The notes beneath the pieces are model-generated. The model was given only the letters and a program-made list of their open reading frames with translations, was not told the origin of the DNA and searched no databases. Positions 545 through 11,334 of a DNA stretch of 64,000 bases are shown here, in pieces (positions within the stretch are counted from its first letter, which is position 1; each line of letters opens with the position of its first letter). This stretch comes from Escherichia coli (lineage in GTDB: Bacteria; Pseudomonadota; Gammaproteobacteria; Enterobacterales; Enterobacteriaceae), in the NCBI RefSeq assembly GCF_003018255.1, contig NZ_CP027440.1. One strand, 5' to 3'. A program made the translations under genes and the position numbers.

Positions 545-2638
545 ATGAAAGCTACAGAAGCCCGCCTACTCGATTTTTTAAAACGTTCGCAGCAGTTTGT
601 TATTCCCATTTATCAACGGACTTATTCATGGACAGAACAACAATGTCGGCAACTTTGGGACGACATCATTCGTGCCGGAAAGCGTGACGATATATCAGCG
701 CATTTTATCGGTTCGGTTGTTTATATAGAGCAGGGATTGTATCAGGTTTCTGGTATTTCTCCGTTGCTGGTCATTGATGGTCAACAGCGGCTGACGACCG
801 CAATGTTGCTGATTGAGGCTTTATCACGCCATCTTGGCGAAGACGAAGTTTTTGATGGCTTTTCAGCAATGAAATTGCGTAATTATTATTTACTCAATCC
901 TTATGAGTCCGGCGAGAAAGGATTTAAATTACTGCTGACCGAGACTGATAAAGACAGTTTGCTGGCGTTAATAAAACAAAGACCAATGCCAGAAAACTAT
1001 TCCCATCGAATAATGGAAAACTTTACTTTCTTTGATGAACAAATTGCCAAACTCGGTGATGACTTGATCCCCTTATGTCGTGGGTTAGCAAAGTTATTAA
1101 TTGTCGATGTGGCGCTTAATCGTGGTCAGGATAATCCGCAACTGATTTTTGAAAGTATGAACTCCACCGGTAAGGCGTTAAGTCAGGCCGATCTGGTGCG
1201 CAATTTTATTCTGATGGGCCTCGAACCAGAGCATCAAACCCGGTTGTATGAAGATCACTGGCGTCCAATGGAAGTCGCTTTTGGTCAGCAAGGTTACAGC
1301 GAATATTTTGACAGCTTTATGCGTCATTATCTGACGGTAAAAACGGGGGAGATCCCTCGGACAGATGAAGTCTATGAGGCATTTAAACTCCATGCCCGCA
1401 GCCAGAGTGTTGCTGAAAAAGGCGTAGATCGGCTGGTTGAAGATATTCACATCTACGCGGAGTATTACTGTGCAATGGCATTGGGAAAAGAAAGTGACAA
1501 ATCGCTTGCTACGGCTTTTCAGGATTTGCGCGAGTTAAAGGTCGATGTGGCATATCCTTTCTTACTGGCGCTTTATCATGACTATAAAAATGGCGATTTG
1601 CCTCACGAAGATTTCCTGAGCATAATTCGTTTAATTGAATCTTATGTTTTCCGCCGTGCAGTATGTGCGATTCCGACGAATTCTCTTAACAAGACGTTTG
1701 CCACTTTTTATAAAGTCATTAATAAAGAAAAATATCTGGAAAGTATTCAGGTACATTTTCTGAATCTGCCTTCATATCGTCGTTTCCCCAACGATGATGA
1801 ATTTAAACGGGAATTAAAAGTTCGCGATCTCTATAACTTCCGTAGTCGCAGCTACTGGTTACGACGACTGGAAAACGATAAACGCAGAGAGCGCGTGGAA
1901 GAGTTTACGATTGAGCATATTATGCCGCAGAACGAAAATCTGTCGGCTAAATGGCGCGAAGAGTTGGGAAGCGACTGGCAGCGTGTGCATAAAGAATTGT
2001 TACATACGTTGGGGAATCTCACTTTAACGCGCTATAACTCCCGCTACAGTGACAGACCTTTCGCGGAAAAACGCGATATTGAAGACGGCTTTAAGCATAG
2101 CCCGCTTTATTTGAATATCGGTCTTGGACAGTGCGAAAAATGGGATGAAGCCGCCATTCACGCCCGAGCCGATCGTCTGGCCGATCTTGCGGTTCAGGTT
2201 TGGCAAGCGCCTGCTCTTCCTGAAGAGGTTTTAGCTGTTTATCGGGCGCAGCCGGAGAACAAAACCAGTTACAGCCTGAGTGATTATCCTTTTCTTGCTG
2301 ATGGTTCGCATAGCCGGGTGTTATTTGATCATCTTCGCGATGAAGTTATGCGCCTGGACGCAGGGATCACGCAGGAAGTATTGAAGCTCTATATTGCGTT
2401 TAAAGCTGAAACGAATTTTGTTGATGTTGTGCCGCAAAAAAGCCGACTGCGATTGTCGCTTAATATGCAGTTTCATGAACTGGTCGATCCGAAAGGTATT
2501 GCCAAAGATGTGACAAATGTTGGGCGATGGGGCAATGGCGATGTGGAAATTGGTTTCAGTGACCTCGCACAACTTCCTTACATTATGGGATTAATTCGTC
2601 AGGCATTTGAAAAACAGATGGAGAACGCGTTGGTATAA
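545..2638 (+). CDS. GmrSD-like DUF262 (ParB/Srx-like NTPase) + DUF1524 (His-Me finger nuclease) protein; candidate modification-dependent type IV restriction endonuclease, 697 aa
   Basis: N-terminal motifs IPIYQRTYSW and DGQQRLTT typical of DUF262; C-terminal EHIMPQN...H...GNLTLT...N resembles a DUF1524 His-Me nuclease motif; sits where K-12 has yjiT-mcrCB. Confidence 0.75.
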   Translation: MKATEARLLDFLKRSQQFVIPIYQRTYSWTEQQCRQLWDDIIRAGKRDDISAHFIGSVVYIEQGLYQVSGISPLLVIDGQQRLTTAMLLIEALSRHLGEDEVFDGFSAMKLRNYYLLNPYESGEKGFKLLLTETDKDSLLALIKQRPMPENYSHRIMENFTFFDEQIAKLGDDLIPLCRGLAKLLIVDVALNRGQDNPQLIFESMNSTGKALSQADLVRNFILMGLEPEHQTRLYEDHWRPMEVAFGQQGYSEYFDSFMRHYLTVKTGEIPRTDEVYEAFKLHARSQSVAEKGVDRLVEDIHIYAEYYCAMALGKESDKSLATAFQDLRELKVDVAYPFLLALYHDYKNGDLPHEDFLSIIRLIESYVFRRAVCAIPTNSLNKTFATFYKVINKEKYLESIQVHFLNLPSYRRFPNDDEFKRELKVRDLYNFRSRSYWLRRLENDKRRERVEEFTIEHIMPQNENLSAKWREELGSDWQRVHKELLHTLGNLTLTRYNSRYSDRPFAEKRDIEDGFKHSPLYLNIGLGQCEKWDEAAIHARADRLADLAVQVWQAPALPEEVLAVYRAQPENKTSYSLSDYPFLADGSHSRVLFDHLRDEVMRLDAGITQEVLKLYIAFKAETNFVDVVPQKSRLRLSLNMQFHELVDPKGIAKDVTNVGRWGNGDVEIGFSDLAQLPYIMGLIRQAFEKQMENALV

Positions 2639-6518: not shown

Positions 6519-8951
6519 TTAAGCAGAGCGGGGCGGTAATTGGTAGATTTCGTTTTCCAGCTCGCTGAGCGCCTGATTATACCCGTTACGGTCGCCAAAT
6601 CCGGTTTTAATAATCTCCGGTAAGGTGCCCATGCTGTCGAATGGTTTAAGTTTCAGCACCTGAATACTTTCGATCTCCTGTACGCCCGCATCGGCGTATT
6701 TATCCAGCAGATTATCGAGCACGGCTTGCGCTGCTTCAGAGTATTTTGTGAAGTAGTTCCGCTTGCGCACGTTCTCGGCGCGCTCTTTGCGGGTTAACGG
6801 CGGCTGACCATACACTACGTGGCAAAGCATGTCGAACGGGTCGAGATCTTTACCGACTTCTTCTGCCAGTACTTCCCAGATGATCCCCTGTTGTTCCAGC
6901 TCGTGAATGATCGCTTCTTTGCGATCGGCGTCCTGCCACTTGCGGGTAAAGTCATCCAGCGAGGCATATTCTTTGAGCAGTGTTTTGCGGGTGTAATCTT
7001 TAAAAGATTCGGTAACCAGTTTACCGTCGGCATCGTAATACTGAACACGCTGCGCAATAACGCCCACCGCTACACCGTTGACGTGAAACTTGCGGATTTT
7101 CTTCTCGTCTTCTTCCGGAAGTGGGCCGACATCATCGGTATCGGTAACCTGGTATGGTGGCGCAGGCGGTTCATCAACGCCTGTTACCTGTTCGTCGTCA
7201 TGTTCGCTGATTTCTTCGAGTTTCTCTTCAAAATCAGATTCTGGATCGGCGATATCCTCTGATGTGGTATCCATGACTTTTTCGGGAATGCCATCGAAAC
7301 GCTCATCGGCAAACAGTTCGGTGGCTTTTTTAAAGTCGAGGATGGTAAACCAGAGTTTGCCGTAACGTTCGTCGATGCGTGTACCACGACCGATAATTTG
7401 CTTGAATTTGGTCATCGACTGGATGTTCTGGTCCAGTACTACCAGTTTGCAGGTTTTAGCATCCACACCAGTGGTCATCAGCTCTGAAGTGGTCGCGATA
7501 ACCGGGTACGCTTTTTTCGGGTTGATGAAGTTATCCAACTGAGCTTTGCCAATTTCATCATCGCCGGTGATTTTCATGACGTATTTGTCGTTCTTTTTCA
7601 CCTGCTCCGGGTTGAGATTCACCAGGGCGCGGCGCATACGTTCTGCATGATCGATGTCGTTACAGAAGACGATGGTTTTATCCATCGGGTTGGTGCGCTT
7701 GAGGTAGTCGGTAATGGTTCTGGCAACCAGTTCTGTCCGTTCGTCGATTACCATCGTGCGATCGAAATCTTTCTGGTTATAGATACGATCGTCGATCACT
7801 TCGCCGTTTAAGTCAGTTTGCCCTTTGGTTGGGCGCCAGCCTTGCAGATCAACATCAATATCAACACGGACAACTTTATAAGGGGCGAGGAAGCCGTCTT
7901 CGATCCCTTCTTTTAGCGAGTAGACGTAAACCGGATCGCCGAAGTAATCCGTGCTGGAGACTTCATGCGTCTCTTTTGGCGTGGCGGTTAAGCCAATTTG
8001 GGTGGCGGAACTGAAATAATCAAGGATCTCTCGCCAGGCGCTGTCTTCGGATGCGCTGCCGCGATGGCATTCGTCGATCACGATCAGATCGAAGAAATCT
8101 GGTGCGACTTGTTTAAACGCTTTTTGGTCTTCCTCCGGGCCAGTTATAGCCTGATAGAGCGCGAGGTGAATTTCATAAGCGGGATCAATGGTGCGTCCGC
8201 TGACTTTGGTCATTGCCGTACCAAATGGCTGGAAATCATTATTTTTGGTTTGGTCGACCAGAATGTTGCGATCGGCAAGGAACAAAATGCGTTTTTTATT
8301 TTTTGATTTCCACAGGCGCCAGATGATCTGGAATGCGGTATAGGTTTTCCCTGTTCCGGTCGCCATGACCAGCAGAACGCGGTTTTGCCCGTTGGAGACG
8401 GCTTCAATGGTTTTGTTGATTGCCTGAAGCTGGTAATAACGAGGCGATTTGCCGCTGCCATCGTCGTAATAGTCCTGAGTAATCACCGGAAGCTGAGCTT
8501 GTGTGTATCCTTTCCAGAGGCAGAATTTTTGCCAGAGTTCAGCGGGGGAGGGGAAGTCATCCAGCGTTATTTGCTTTTCAAGGCATTCACCTTCAGCTGC
8601 GGTGGCATCGCGGAAGATAAAGCCATCACCGTTGGTGGCAAAAACAAAAGGAACGTCCAGCAGGCGCGCATATTCAATGCCCTGTTGCATCCCTTTGCCA
8701 ATTTCATGTTTGTTGGCTTTTGCTTCAATCACGGCTAAGGGAATGCCTGGTTTGTGATACAGCACGATGTCAGCAGATTTTACCGTTCTGCGTGCCGCAA
8801 CTTTACCACGTACGATGACTTTACCGTTCCGGAGTTTGACCTCCTGTCTGATTTGCGTTGTGTTGTCCCAGCCTGCATTGAGAATGGCTGGCATAACGCA
8901 TTTGGTAATGATGTCTGCTTCCGTCAGGTTACTTAGGTTCAGTTCCGCCAT
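6519..8951 (-). CDS. hsdR: Type I restriction endonuclease subunit HsdR, 810 aa (EcoAI-like / type IB size class)
   Basis: Helicase motifs [11 protein letters not shown] (Walker A) and VIDECHRG (DECH box); 810 aa is far shorter than EcoKI-type HsdR; gene order hsdR-hsdM-hsdS on the minus strand. Confidence 0.9.
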
Positions 8952-9091
8952 GGGGTGTTCTCATCTAAATGCGATGCGTAAATTCTACACAGAAAAATAG
9001 ATGAATTCATCTGTTCAAAGAGTATTATCAGCGTTAAGTCACTGTTTTAAAGGTATTCTTGAGTTTCATCAATAGCTGGATAAGGATTCAT

Positions 9092-10060
9092 ATGGAGAAT
9101 GTTCGGTTCTTGCAAGGAGTGAAACAATATTTTTGTACTAAGGCATTAGATGTCATTCTGCTAATTTATCTACTCCTTGGTTTTATACTTCTCCCTTATA
9201 AATATCTGTGGAAAGATATTATTTTATCTCTGTACTTTGTTGGTATTCTTCTTTATGCATTAGTGGAAGAAAATCGCATTGCAGAATATATGGGGTATTT
9301 TGTTAAGTTCAGTAATAAAAACAGGTTGAATAGTTGTGCTGCCTGGTGTTCACTTATTGCATGGTTTATATTTTTGTTTTTTGTGCTTTCAATTAATATT
9401 TTTCCAGTCAGTGCCTCTGTATATATTTTTAGTGCTTTTTCATTATTTGTTTTTCTGGGGGGTATTTTTATTATATTAGAGTTAGAGTTTAAAGAAAATA
9501 AAAAATTAATGATTATTAGGTCTGTGACTATAGCAGTCATGCCAATTATATATTTATTCACAAGTAGTTATGCTTCCAGTTTATTTTTAAGTTTGAGTAA
9601 TCTAAACATTACGCTAACTCCATGGGTTGAGTATTTCTGGAAAGGGATGGTTTTTATGTTGCTTTTCTTCATGTTAATGCAACTTATTATCTATTTTGCT
9701 TTTTTAACTCTGGGGACTAAATTAAGTGTGTATAGGTTGTTTATACTTGCCGGAGCATTTGTAGTATCTACTTTTTTAGTGGCTTTTGCTTTAAAAAATG
9801 TAGAAGGTATTTCGTACTACGTTTTAAAAAGCACCATAGATTTTGAATGGCGTAATCAGATTAAATGTGGCCAGTTGAATATTTCACGTTCGAATGAAAA
9901 GTATTTTGGGTTTAATACTGATAAATATACTGTATTTTATTCCGGCAGAGATGGTAAATGGGGCTTTGATGAGTTGAAATGTAAGAAAGGTTCTGACAGG
10001 AGAGATGCATATTCTATTGAGAATGTCTCAGAATATAACGTGCCTGGATGGCTGAAATAA
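9092..10060 (+). CDS. Hypothetical polytopic membrane protein (about 7 TM helices plus 80-aa hydrophilic C-terminal domain), very AT-rich gene
   Basis: Long ORF in AT-rich DNA; ATG at 9092 preceded by AAGGA (the ORF track begins at a TTG at 9059); hydrophobic segments throughout; lies where K-12 has mrr; I recognise no family. Confidence 0.55.
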   Translation: MENVRFLQGVKQYFCTKALDVILLIYLLLGFILLPYKYLWKDIILSLYFVGILLYALVEENRIAEYMGYFVKFSNKNRLNSCAAWCSLIAWFIFLFFVLSINIFPVSASVYIFSAFSLFVFLGGIFIILELEFKENKKLMIIRSVTIAVMPIIYLFTSSYASSLFLSLSNLNITLTPWVEYFWKGMVFMLLFFMLMQLIIYFAFLTLGTKLSVYRLFILAGAFVVSTFLVAFALKNVEGISYYVLKSTIDFEWRNQIKCGQLNISRSNEKYFGFNTDKYTVFYSGRDGKWGFDELKCKKGSDRRDAYSIENVSEYNVPGWLK

Positions 10061-10377
10061 GTCATCTTTATAAATTATATAGTAAAGGTTCTGGTCATAA
10101 ACGAGCATAGTTAAACATAAACGGGGCATACTCCACACACTTGATGTGCAGCAAGAAGTTGAACTCATGGCTTTGGTTAATAAATCTGACGAAGATATTG
10201 ATTACAGCGACATTCCTGCGTCTGGTAGCGAAGCATGGGCTGACGCCACACGCGGCAATTTTTTGCCAGATCCAGGTATTCACGCGCAATAAAACTTAGC
10301 GGAGGGGAGCACGTCGTTCTGTTTCCCCCTCACTGCTAAGTGGGGCATTGGGTTGCTTTACACTCAACCTTTTACGA

Positions 10378-11334
10378 TTATTTCCTCAACCCCGCAAACG
10401 CCGCCCGAATCTTATCCTCCGGCAGCTGAATCCCGATAAACACCATTGTGCTATGCGGTGTTTCATCGCCCCACGGGCGGTCCCAGTCGGCGCTGTAGAG
10501 GCGTTGGACGCCCTGGAACAGCAGGCGGCTAGGTTCGCCGTCAATCCACAGCATCCCTTTGTAACGCAGTAGTTTATCCGCCGATTCCAGCAGCAGGTTT
10601 TCCATCACGCGGGAAACTTCGCTGATATCTACCGGGTAATCCAGTTCCACCACAATCGACGAAATATCGTTTTGTTTATCCGCGATAAAGTGGAAACGCG
10701 GTTTGGTGCTGACGACGTTTTCTTCCAGCATAAAACCGTTGGTGTTGAACAACAGGCCCAGGTCGATGTCACCGTGGGTGACGGTGTAGACCGGTGCGCG
10801 GGCGTTGATGCGCGCCAGGCGTTCACGCAGTTTCTCTACTTCGCCTGCGACGTCGGTTTTAGTCAGCAGAATACGGTCAGCGTAGCCCACCTGGGACTGG
10901 GCGATGGTGAACTGGTTCATCTGCTCATCGGCATGTACCGCATCCACCAGCGCAATCACGCCATCCAGCAGGTAACGCTGGCATAAAATCTCATGGGAGA
11001 AAAAGGTCTGAATAATCGGGCCGGGATCGGCCATGCCGGTGCATTCAATGACCAGACGGTCGAACTGAATATTGCCCTTGTCGAGATTGTCCAGCAGGTC
11101 GAGTAGCGCGTCCTCCAGCTCGTTGGAGCGCGAACAGCAGATGCAGCCGTTGGTCAGCGTTTTGATCTGCGTGGCGCGGTCGCCAATCAGTTGATCATCA
11201 ACGGAGACTTCGCCGAATTCGTTTTCAATCACGGCAATTTTGTAGCCGTGCTGTTCATTAAGAATATGGCGCAGCAGGGTGGTTTTGCCCGCGCCTAAAA
11301 AACCGGTGAGTAGGGTAACTGCAATCGGGTTCAT
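10378..11334 (-). CDS. yjiA: CobW/P47K-family GTPase (zinc chaperone-like) YjiA
   Basis: MNPIAVTLLTGFLGAGKTTLLRHIL (P-loop) from ATG at 11332-11334; the ORF-track N-terminal extension is not used. Confidence 0.9.
   Translation of the reverse strand: MNPIAVTLLTGFLGAGKTTLLRHILNEQHGYKIAVIENEFGEVSVDDQLIGDRATQIKTLTNGCICCSRSNELEDALLDLLDNLDKGNIQFDRLVIECTGMADPGPIIQTFFSHEILCQRYLLDGVIALVDAVHADEQMNQFTIAQSQVGYADRILLTKTDVAGEVEKLRERLARINARAPVYTVTHGDIDLGLLFNTNGFMLEENVVSTKPRFHFIADKQNDISSIVVELDYPVDISEVSRVMENLLLESADKLLRYKGMLWIDGEPSRLLFQGVQRLYSADWDRPWGDETPHSTMVFIGIQLPEDKIRAAFAGLRK

Follow-up and report, generated by a model that had tools for sequence, protein, structure and literature searches.

An unnamed seven-helix membrane protein encoded at the mrr position of the Escherichia coli immigration control region

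A variable cassette between hsdR and yjiA

We analyzed a 64,000-nucleotide stretch of Escherichia coli DNA (contig NZ_CP027440.1 of assembly GCF_003018255.1, hereafter the window) in which the position held by mrr in K-12 is taken by a gene for a predicted seven-helix membrane protein. The gene order is hsdR(-), mrr(+), yjiA(-) in K-12 and hsdR(-), membrane gene(+), yjiA(-) in the window, so that the location in the mrr slot, proposed in a previous sequence-only reading of this DNA, is confirmed, orientation included. The membrane gene is divergent from the hsdR gene of an EcoAI-family (type IB) restriction system (6519..8951, minus strand), which matches the PADLOC model REase_I with E = 0. 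On its other flank, RefSeq annotation and blastn identify the yjiA GTPase gene (10378..11334, minus strand), a conserved anchor of the immigration control region (ICR) (PMC12707154).

The coding sequence (9092..10060, plus strand, stop codon included) encodes a protein of 322 amino acids (aa) and is documented by the list of open reading frames (ORFs), RefSeq, substitution analysis and AlphaFold2 modeling. The complete plus-strand ORF extends from 9059 to 10060 and would yield 333 aa from a TTG start; its first ATG, at 9092, yields 322 aa. An AAGGA Shine-Dalgarno element, read from the sequence at 9082..9086 (plus strand), lies 5 nt before this ATG. RefSeq labels exactly the 322-aa form as a 'hypothetical protein' in the closest complete genome, and in a four-way alignment with Salmonella and Klebsiella the gene start falls at ATG 9092, the start codon being kept across genera. 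As cross-genus homology and RefSeq both begin at ATG 9092, the TTG start at 9059 was dropped. The single ORF of 322-333 aa, the ATG and the ribosome-binding site that had been noticed in the letters are all retained.

GC content is 0.30-0.32 across 9001-10000 (500-nt windows) versus 0.48-0.50 toward hsdR and 0.52-0.57 toward yjiA. For the ORF itself it is 0.314 (0.288 at third codon positions, GC3), compared with 0.510 for the whole window, 0.495 for hsdR and 0.548 for yjiA. The windowed calculation therefore bears out the AT-rich block of about 1 kb first judged by eye, and the argument for a foreign origin stands, with the membrane gene about 20 points below its flanks. Promoter and terminator scans of 8800-10450 gave nothing above chance level, and an Rfam search returned no match.

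In blastn comparisons with CFT073 and EDL933, homology stops 11 bases beyond the hsdR start codon, at 8962, and returns exactly at 10378, the yjiA stop codon. Because homology breaks exactly at these two points, we regard the segment 8963..10377, from the hsdR start codon to the yjiA stop codon, as a discrete variable cassette. In CFT073 and EDL933 the slot is filled, in the same orientation, by a DUF262/HNH GmrSD-like gene with a PADLOC Orf5/HEC-06 match. The repeat search detected no flanking direct or inverted repeats marking a mobile-element boundary. Among E. coli genomes, 975 have an EcoAI-family hsdR and 443 the membrane gene, which makes the membrane gene one of at least two alternatives beside a type IB hsdR.

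The stretch separating the divergently oriented hsdR and membrane genes (8952..9091) is far better conserved than the membrane gene. Identity across genera is 77-83% up to about 9065, and a four-sequence alignment has a mean column identity of 83%, with long invariant runs; in blastn the homology reaches 9065 in Salmonella (locus L002) and 9061 in Klebsiella (L003). The repeat search revealed within this region a perfect 14-bp palindrome, AGATGAATTCATCT (8999..9012), whose core AGATGAA.TCAT is invariant in the aligned E. coli, Salmonella and Klebsiella sequences. It may serve hsdR and the membrane gene alike as an operator.

Predicted architecture of the membrane protein

Hydropathy analysis delineates seven hydrophobic segments (residues ~17-37, 40-59, 81-103, 108-131, 139-160, 183-207 and 215-236) followed by a hydrophilic C-terminal stretch of 86 aa. 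The AlphaFold2 model was built from a 36-sequence alignment (mean predicted local distance difference test score, pLDDT, 85.1; predicted template modeling score, pTM, 0.74) and replaced an earlier 21-sequence run of poor quality (pLDDT 67.8). Its helices coincide with the seven hydrophobic segments, with short cytoplasmic helices in addition, and are followed by a connecting helix (237-252) and six beta strands within 256-316. The positive-inside rule gives an N-in/C-out orientation in all 36 sequences, with a mean of 11.6 lysines and arginines in inside loops versus 2.7 in outside loops. We predict an inner-membrane protein with seven transmembrane (TM) helices, a cytoplasmic N terminus and a periplasmic C-terminal domain. 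On the plus strand, the helix bundle corresponds to codons 17-236 (9140..9799) and the C-terminal domain, one helix and a six-strand antiparallel beta sheet, to codons 237-322 (9800..10057). The sequence-only reading had counted about seven helices, in agreement with both hydropathy and the AlphaFold2 secondary structure. It had also described a hydrophilic tail of about 80 aa: hydrophilic it is, but the model makes it a folded beta domain, predicted to be periplasmic, not a mere tail.

Conservation is highest on the predicted periplasmic side, that is, in the TM5-TM6 loop (aa 161-182) and in the C-terminal domain. The loop carries the motif SNL..S.SPW.E..WK, including S163, S169 and an invariant P177. 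The C-terminal domain displays the motif E.YFGFNTDKYTV...GKWGFEEL.C and the invariant residues E252, W253, C259, Y271, F292 and C297. With the predicted periplasmic location of this domain, its two invariant cysteines suggest a disulfide between C259 and C297. Cytoplasmic loops are only 7-21 residues long and cytoplasmic mass is almost nil, which leaves no room for an enzymatic or sensor module on that side. No conserved catalytic-looking motif could be detected in the family alignment.

A small family in Enterobacterales

A first search of 5.8 billion protein clusters recovered 43 clusters, every one enterobacterial and 'hypothetical'. The full HMMER profile search of 1.84 billion representative proteins found 41 family members, about 16 of them full length and the others fragments. 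Scanning one genome per species (100,044 species) yielded 11 loci, in Enterobacter, Pantoea, Atlantibacter, Lonsdalea and Proteus, together with an additional contig of a 'Bacillota' metagenome-assembled genome that is plainly E. coli DNA. The AlphaFold database (AFDB) supplies further members from Photorhabdus and Providencia. Full-length homologues in other genera are 24-45% identical, and at least a dozen enterobacterial genera are represented; the gene had been called an orphan, which is an overstatement. As far as these searches reach, the family appears to be very small, unnamed and confined to Enterobacterales. GC content is 0.29-0.39 in every copy examined, whereas the surrounding DNA is at 0.47-0.65.

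The sequence-only reading recognized no family, and Pfam, NCBIfam and PADLOC likewise return none. In Pfam, the query has no match even at E <= 10, and 36 members have none at E <= 0.001; with the C-terminal domain alone, nothing significant was retrieved, CBM_10 appearing at E = 0.018 in one member. NCBIfam contains no match to the membrane protein. The sole PHROGs match, to phrog_944 'membrane protein' (E = 0.0076 over 79 aa), is not significant. A sequence-profile search of the PDB gave only noise with the full-length profile (E >= 0.98), and with the C-terminal domain one weak match, to the Pmt3 MIR domain (E = 0.17), that we take as chance. None of these searches showed homology to a housekeeping transporter. 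What is new here is an unnamed family and a fold with no solved counterpart. The RefSeq protein accessions of the gene are mentioned in no paper found, the ICR reviews give no description of it, and none of the terms looked for is present in Hochhauser 2023.

In AFDB50, the structural matches ranked 25-50 are uncharacterized membrane proteins from Enterobacter, Klebsiella, Affinibrenneria, Pseudomonas, Burkholderia, Acinetobacter and Duganella, with TM-scores of 0.4-0.6 to our model and 10-18% identity. These look-alikes, among them A0A5J5G2E0, A0A6S5K5L4 and A0ABD7N6V9, may belong to a wider superfamily.

Distribution and selection within E. coli

By megablast, the membrane gene is found in 443 of 5,426 complete E. 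coli genomes (409 matches span at least 80% of the gene); its alleles fall into no fewer than three groups, with nucleotide identities of about 98%, 93% and 92%. Carrier lineages, about 8% of complete genomes, include O26-type Shiga toxin-producing (STEC), avian pathogenic (APEC) and uropathogenic (UPEC) E. coli. Outside this species, about 1,100 member sequences fall in one Salmonella cluster and about 430 in one Klebsiella cluster.

We compared the window and three other E. coli alleles pairwise. The ratio of non-synonymous to synonymous substitution rates (dN/dS) is 0.29-0.37 for the membrane gene, based on 33-43 non-synonymous and 25-33 synonymous differences; it is lower for the neighbors: 0.04-0.17 for hsdR, 0.01-0.05 for hsdM and 0.03-0.07 for yjiA. 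The 969-nt ORF is intact and of equal length in all four alleles. These comparisons point to purifying selection, weaker than on hsdR, hsdM or yjiA, and to a real, selectively maintained gene.

Synonymous divergence (dS) within E. coli is 0.14-0.19 for the membrane gene, 0.09-0.13 for yjiA and 0.013-0.029 for hsdR; the membrane gene is thus similar to yjiA and 5-10 times hsdR. That hsdR dS lies so far below that of the adjoining membrane gene and yjiA suggests a recent spread or homogenization of the type IB hsdR allele across lineages.

In E. coli 97-3250 (O26 allele; L041, 6001-6969) the protein has F292V where all 36 aligned family members are invariant, and further changes W91C, Y160C and V149C; on the basis of these substitutions its function may be impaired. 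In E. coli SY3626 (L042, 5286-6441) an IS1A insertion/deletion took out hsdRMS and the 5' half of the membrane gene, the remainder being annotated as a 137-aa stump.

Genomic contexts of relatives

We compared nine independent genomic settings of the family. In seven of the nine, known or candidate defense genes, or the integrase of the leuX hotspot, lie within a few genes of the family member; homologues are thus present in other defense islands, as the sequence-only reading had asked of a neighborhood survey. In Salmonella and Klebsiella, a 322-aa form lies about 140 bp from, and divergent to, a type IB hsdR, while the far flank differs and is yjiR instead of yjiA in Klebsiella. In Enterobacter asburiae the gene sits beside DUF445/yjiN, the other ICR anchor. 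The order in Pantoea coffeiphila is ZorD, two unknown genes, the family gene and Fic. In Atlantibacter the family gene follows a giant mad8/DndH-like protein gene and a phosphorothioate-DNA endonuclease gene. In Pantoea agglomerans and P. conspicua it comes directly after a gene (L037 6943-7611; L038 7111-7779) with a full-length match to the PADLOC candidate defense model PDC-S12 (E = 1e-107); PDC-S12 and the membrane gene may form a two-gene arrangement specific to Pantoea.

A second form, of 315 aa, is found in Pectobacterium, Serratia, Lonsdalea, Enterobacter sp. 10-1, isolate RIT693 and metagenomic relatives. It lies about 50 bp downstream of a P4-type integrase gene and on the same strand. 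This integrase gene directly follows the tRNA-Leu(CAA) gene leuX, after lptFG, and the membrane gene is the first one after the integrase. leuX anchors 'hotspot 37', the most occupied E. coli defense island (PMC12707154), and both the ICR and this hotspot have been described as defense islands (PMC12707154). The leuX islands with a family gene hold a primase, AlpA, toxin-antitoxin pairs, a TIR protein, an OLD-like ATPase, RloB/AAA_21 and Mrr; some consist of the integrase and the membrane gene alone. In Kosakonia the order is leuX, a truncated integrase gene overlapping the membrane gene, an Mrr-type gene, SymE, hsdSMR and ZorA, and an IMG/VR contig (L046) presents the same order up to the Mrr-type gene. 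In both cases (Kosakonia L013, 9175-11014; L046, 7115-8954) the integrase is cut to 277 aa and overlaps an N-terminally extended membrane ORF of 337 aa. L046 also has, upstream and in tandem, a complete P4-like satellite with Psu, repressor and alpha primase.

The vicinity of the integrase raises the possibility that the gene has no organism-level function. It may be a horizontally spread, probably H-NS-silenced passenger or remnant, once the integrase-proximal gene of a leuX element and now hitch-hiking with the hsd cassette in the ICR. In support of this, the 315-aa form keeps its distance to the leuX integrase even in otherwise empty islands, and in Kosakonia and L046 the truncated integrase is fused onto the membrane gene beside Mrr (with symE and hsd as well in Kosakonia), so that this arrangement bridges the leuX and ICR contexts. 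Furthermore, copies that are truncated, frameshifted or IS1-deleted occur frequently, dN/dS amounts to 3-8 times the values of the neighboring genes, and the O26 allele has lost an otherwise invariant phenylalanine (F292V). However, a dN/dS of about 0.3 corresponds to purifying selection, the ORF has kept its length in four E. coli alleles, full-length copies with invariant motifs are found across genera at 24-45% identity, and some copies have neither integrase nor hsd neighbor. We consider the passenger explanation unlikely on this evidence.

Neighboring genes vary in all nine contexts and there is no conserved partner gene. With no constant neighbor, the membrane protein must work alone, if it works at all.

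Probable exchange of alleles at a fixed site

The E. coli HsdR is 92% identical to that of Klebsiella and 81% identical to that of Salmonella. The E. coli membrane protein, in contrast, is only 42% identical to either, while the Salmonella and Klebsiella proteins share 86% identity. Comparing Klebsiella and Salmonella with the window, we located a recombination breakpoint about 27 nt upstream of the start codon of the membrane gene. In the leuX subfamily, similarly, integrase divergence is uncoupled from membrane-gene divergence. Since divergence of the membrane gene is incongruent with that of both hsdR and the integrase, deeply divergent alleles appear to have been exchanged independently of their neighbors at a fixed site. 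Such swapping would fit a gene under fluctuating, frequency-dependent selection.

These data also bear on a possible accessory role in type IB restriction, in which the protein would tether HsdR to the membrane or regulate it, or simply be co-regulated with it from a shared divergent promoter. In all three genera with the 322-aa form, it is always about 140 bp from, and divergent to, an EcoAI-family hsdR, also when the other flank is not the same, and the palindrome-bearing intergenic region is more conserved than the coding sequence. Against this stand the 975 E. coli genomes with hsdR compared with 443 with the membrane gene, the others, including CFT073 and EDL933, holding a different gene; the 315-aa subfamily and stand-alone copies with no hsd neighbor; alleles that are phylogenetically incongruent with hsdR; and the near absence of a cytoplasmic surface for contact with HsdR. 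An accessory role of any kind is very improbable in our view, and a dedicated one was rejected because more than half of the hsdR-IB strains are devoid of the gene and because of the incongruence of alleles.

A possible envelope-level barrier

From genomic context, the reading that we favor, though with less than even confidence, is that the membrane protein represents a new family, works on its own and would protect the cell, at the level of the envelope, against phages or mobile DNA. We think that phages are its likeliest targets, perhaps along with other mobile elements. The nearest positional counterparts are Mrr and the GmrSD-like proteins, single-gene cassettes with identical position and orientation between hsdR and yjiA. 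Those, however, are soluble nucleases acting on modified DNA, whereas the family protein is predicted to be integral to the membrane and has no nuclease or NTPase domain; Pfam detects in it neither Mrr_cat / PD-(D/E)xK nor DUF262+HNH nuclease domains.

The protein would act at the periplasmic face of the inner membrane, keeping foreign DNA out. Its periplasmic domain, probably stabilized by the disulfide, would recognize something that is present at the inner membrane while a genome is being delivered, for instance a phage protein (ejection or tape-measure) or the host channel that it uses, and recognition would block translocation as in superinfection exclusion. Known superinfection-exclusion proteins and blockers of DNA entry, such as T4 Imm, P22 SieA and HK97 gp15, are encoded by phages or prophages and are small, with 1-4 TM helices. 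Like them, the family protein is predicted to be a single membrane protein with a periplasmic functional surface and no enzymatic domain, acting alone. Unlike them, it is borne by chromosomal islands, has seven TM helices and a beta domain, and shows no similarity to them in sequence or fold.

Encoding by phages or prophages, a hallmark of superinfection exclusion, is not seen for the family in phage records or BFVD. By tblastn the family was not found in 50,697 phage records; the viral structures of BFVD contain no fold match at E <= 0.001; and IMG/VR has the family in 1 of 2.9 million contigs, where it lies beyond the P4-like satellite proper. The single plasmid record with a family gene is a 373-kb non-mobilizable replicon that is probably chromosomal DNA. 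We conclude from these searches that the family is, to all appearances, neither phage- nor plasmid-borne. It differs in this from the classical superinfection-exclusion genes, which are phage-borne.

This absence from phages weighs against the envelope-barrier proposal, and so do several other observations. Functional evidence for defense is guilt by association alone, and no phenotype is on record. None of the 5,027 defense protein models of PADLOC-DB v2 matches the protein even at E <= 1. Two of the nine contexts count as non-defense: in Proteus penneri the gene lies between a Wzx/GT2 polysaccharide cluster and a methyltransferase and hsdR, and in Buttiauxella a lone copy stands between fdnGHI and a LysR regulator with no defense neighbor. 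The periplasmic domain is the best-conserved part of the protein, which is not expected under a direct arms race with phage proteins. Many family entries in databases are truncated or frameshifted. Finally, AT-rich genes like this one are commonly silenced by H-NS, so that its expression is uncertain. The defense function put forward in the sequence-only reading thus holds in part: the gene shares its slot with Mrr and GmrSD-like genes and in seven of nine contexts is close to defense genes or the leuX integrase, but no defense model matches it and the Buttiauxella copy lies among metabolic genes.

Less likely than a block to translocation, the seven-helix bundle would leak ions and the infection would be aborted. 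Inner-membrane proteins of defense islands are well known, and those of Zorya (ZorAB), Kiwa (KwaA) and Rex (RexB), like the TM effectors of CBASS, Pycsar and retrons, depend on signaling enzymes or conserved partner genes. The family protein resembles them in its predicted inner-membrane location, its presence in defense islands and a possible link between events at the envelope and defense, but it differs in having no conserved partner and no PADLOC match. A conserved sensor or signal-generating partner gene in the same operon, as expected for abortive-infection membrane effectors (RexB-like, 2TM/4TM), was not found among the nine contexts. The abortive-infection effector initially suggested is no better supported than entry exclusion, cytoplasmic mass being almost nil and the conserved surface periplasmic. 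We favor obstruction or recognition of the genome-delivery apparatus over ion leakage.

The same features may be read in terms of bacterial competition. A small multi-TM protein with a conserved periplasmic surface, encoded by a single AT-rich gene with divergent alleles, could serve, as an orphan, for immunity to or protection from a toxin that acts on the membrane or in the periplasm, for example a bacteriocin, a contact-dependent inhibition (CDI) toxin or a type VI secretion system (T6SS) effector. The Serratia locus does carry CdiI_5 and Tlde1-domain genes within 10 kb. However, a cognate toxin gene adjoins the family gene in none of the nine contexts, no Pfam immunity family matches, and the neighbors are overwhelmingly nucleic-acid defense genes; a role in toxin immunity seems quite unlikely to us.

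A further hypothesis is that the protein works on O-antigen, enterobacterial common antigen or some other envelope glycan, which it would modify, polymerize or ligate at the periplasmic face; phages would then be affected only indirectly, through a change of receptor. Genes of the Wzy, GtrC and Oac types are very AT-rich, encode multi-TM proteins, diverge strongly between strains and often lie beside prophage integrases. The family resembles them in these respects, a GC content of about 30% and a multi-TM architecture being typical of wzy, gtrC and oac-type genes, and the Proteus penneri copy is divergent from a cluster with a Wzx flippase and GT2. Sugar binding by the aromatic-rich beta domain is also conceivable, as the weak, non-significant Pmt3 MIR and CBM_10 matches hint. 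On the other hand, the protein has only seven TM helices, fewer than such enzymes, and no conserved acidic or Arg-rich periplasmic catalytic motif. Neither profile nor fold similarity to GT-C glycosyltransferases, Wzy, WaaL or Acyl_transf_3 (Oac) was observed, nor the 9-12 TM helices with periplasmic catalytic residues. Eight of the nine contexts contain no glycan genes, and the neighbors, Proteus excepted, are defense genes. We regard a glycan function as improbable.

A more specific version of the envelope-barrier proposal can be formulated: single-protein immunity in which a seven-TM protein of unmatched fold detects or obstructs phage or mobile-DNA delivery through a probably disulfide-locked periplasmic domain, its divergent alleles being interchangeable with type IV restriction enzymes in the ICR and at leuX. 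Taken as a whole, this version is doubtful, more so than the general proposal. If a defense role is true, it would be membrane-level exclusion, a kind of defense already known. The ICR (hsd-mrr-mcr) is nevertheless the oldest studied defense island, and its occupants known so far are nucleases; a membrane protein in the Mrr/GmrSD slot would mean that the ICR also holds a barrier acting before DNA enters the cytoplasm. With about 8% of complete E. coli genomes and large Salmonella and Klebsiella clusters, the family is relevant to phage therapy and to how clinical strains take up DNA. Even with no role in defense, the locus documents precise cassette exchange and allele incongruence beside a highly conserved hsdR.

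Other features of the window

Downstream of the membrane gene, the E. coli cassette contains a remnant of a BrnA-type antitoxin gene (10167..10292, plus strand; 41 aa from its ATG, within a longer frame 10101-10292). RefSeq names the product of 10101-10292 'hypothetical protein' in one strain and 'antitoxin' in others. Only 31 aa can be aligned, at 61% identity, to residues 24-54 of the 100-aa Klebsiella BrnA, and neither the window ORF list nor the RefSeq annotation has a BrnT ORF beside it; for these two reasons we describe the small ORF as a remnant. It is absent from the Salmonella and Klebsiella versions of the cassette.

At 545-2638 (plus strand), the window also carries an intact 697-aa GmrSD-like (DUF262/HNH) gene that matches PADLOC Orf5/HEC-06 and has a PDC-S18-like C-terminal extension. 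In the closest RefSeq genome, the annotation of the corresponding region shows first a fragment labeled as a pseudogene and then a GmrSD-domain gene that is shorter, at 388 aa.

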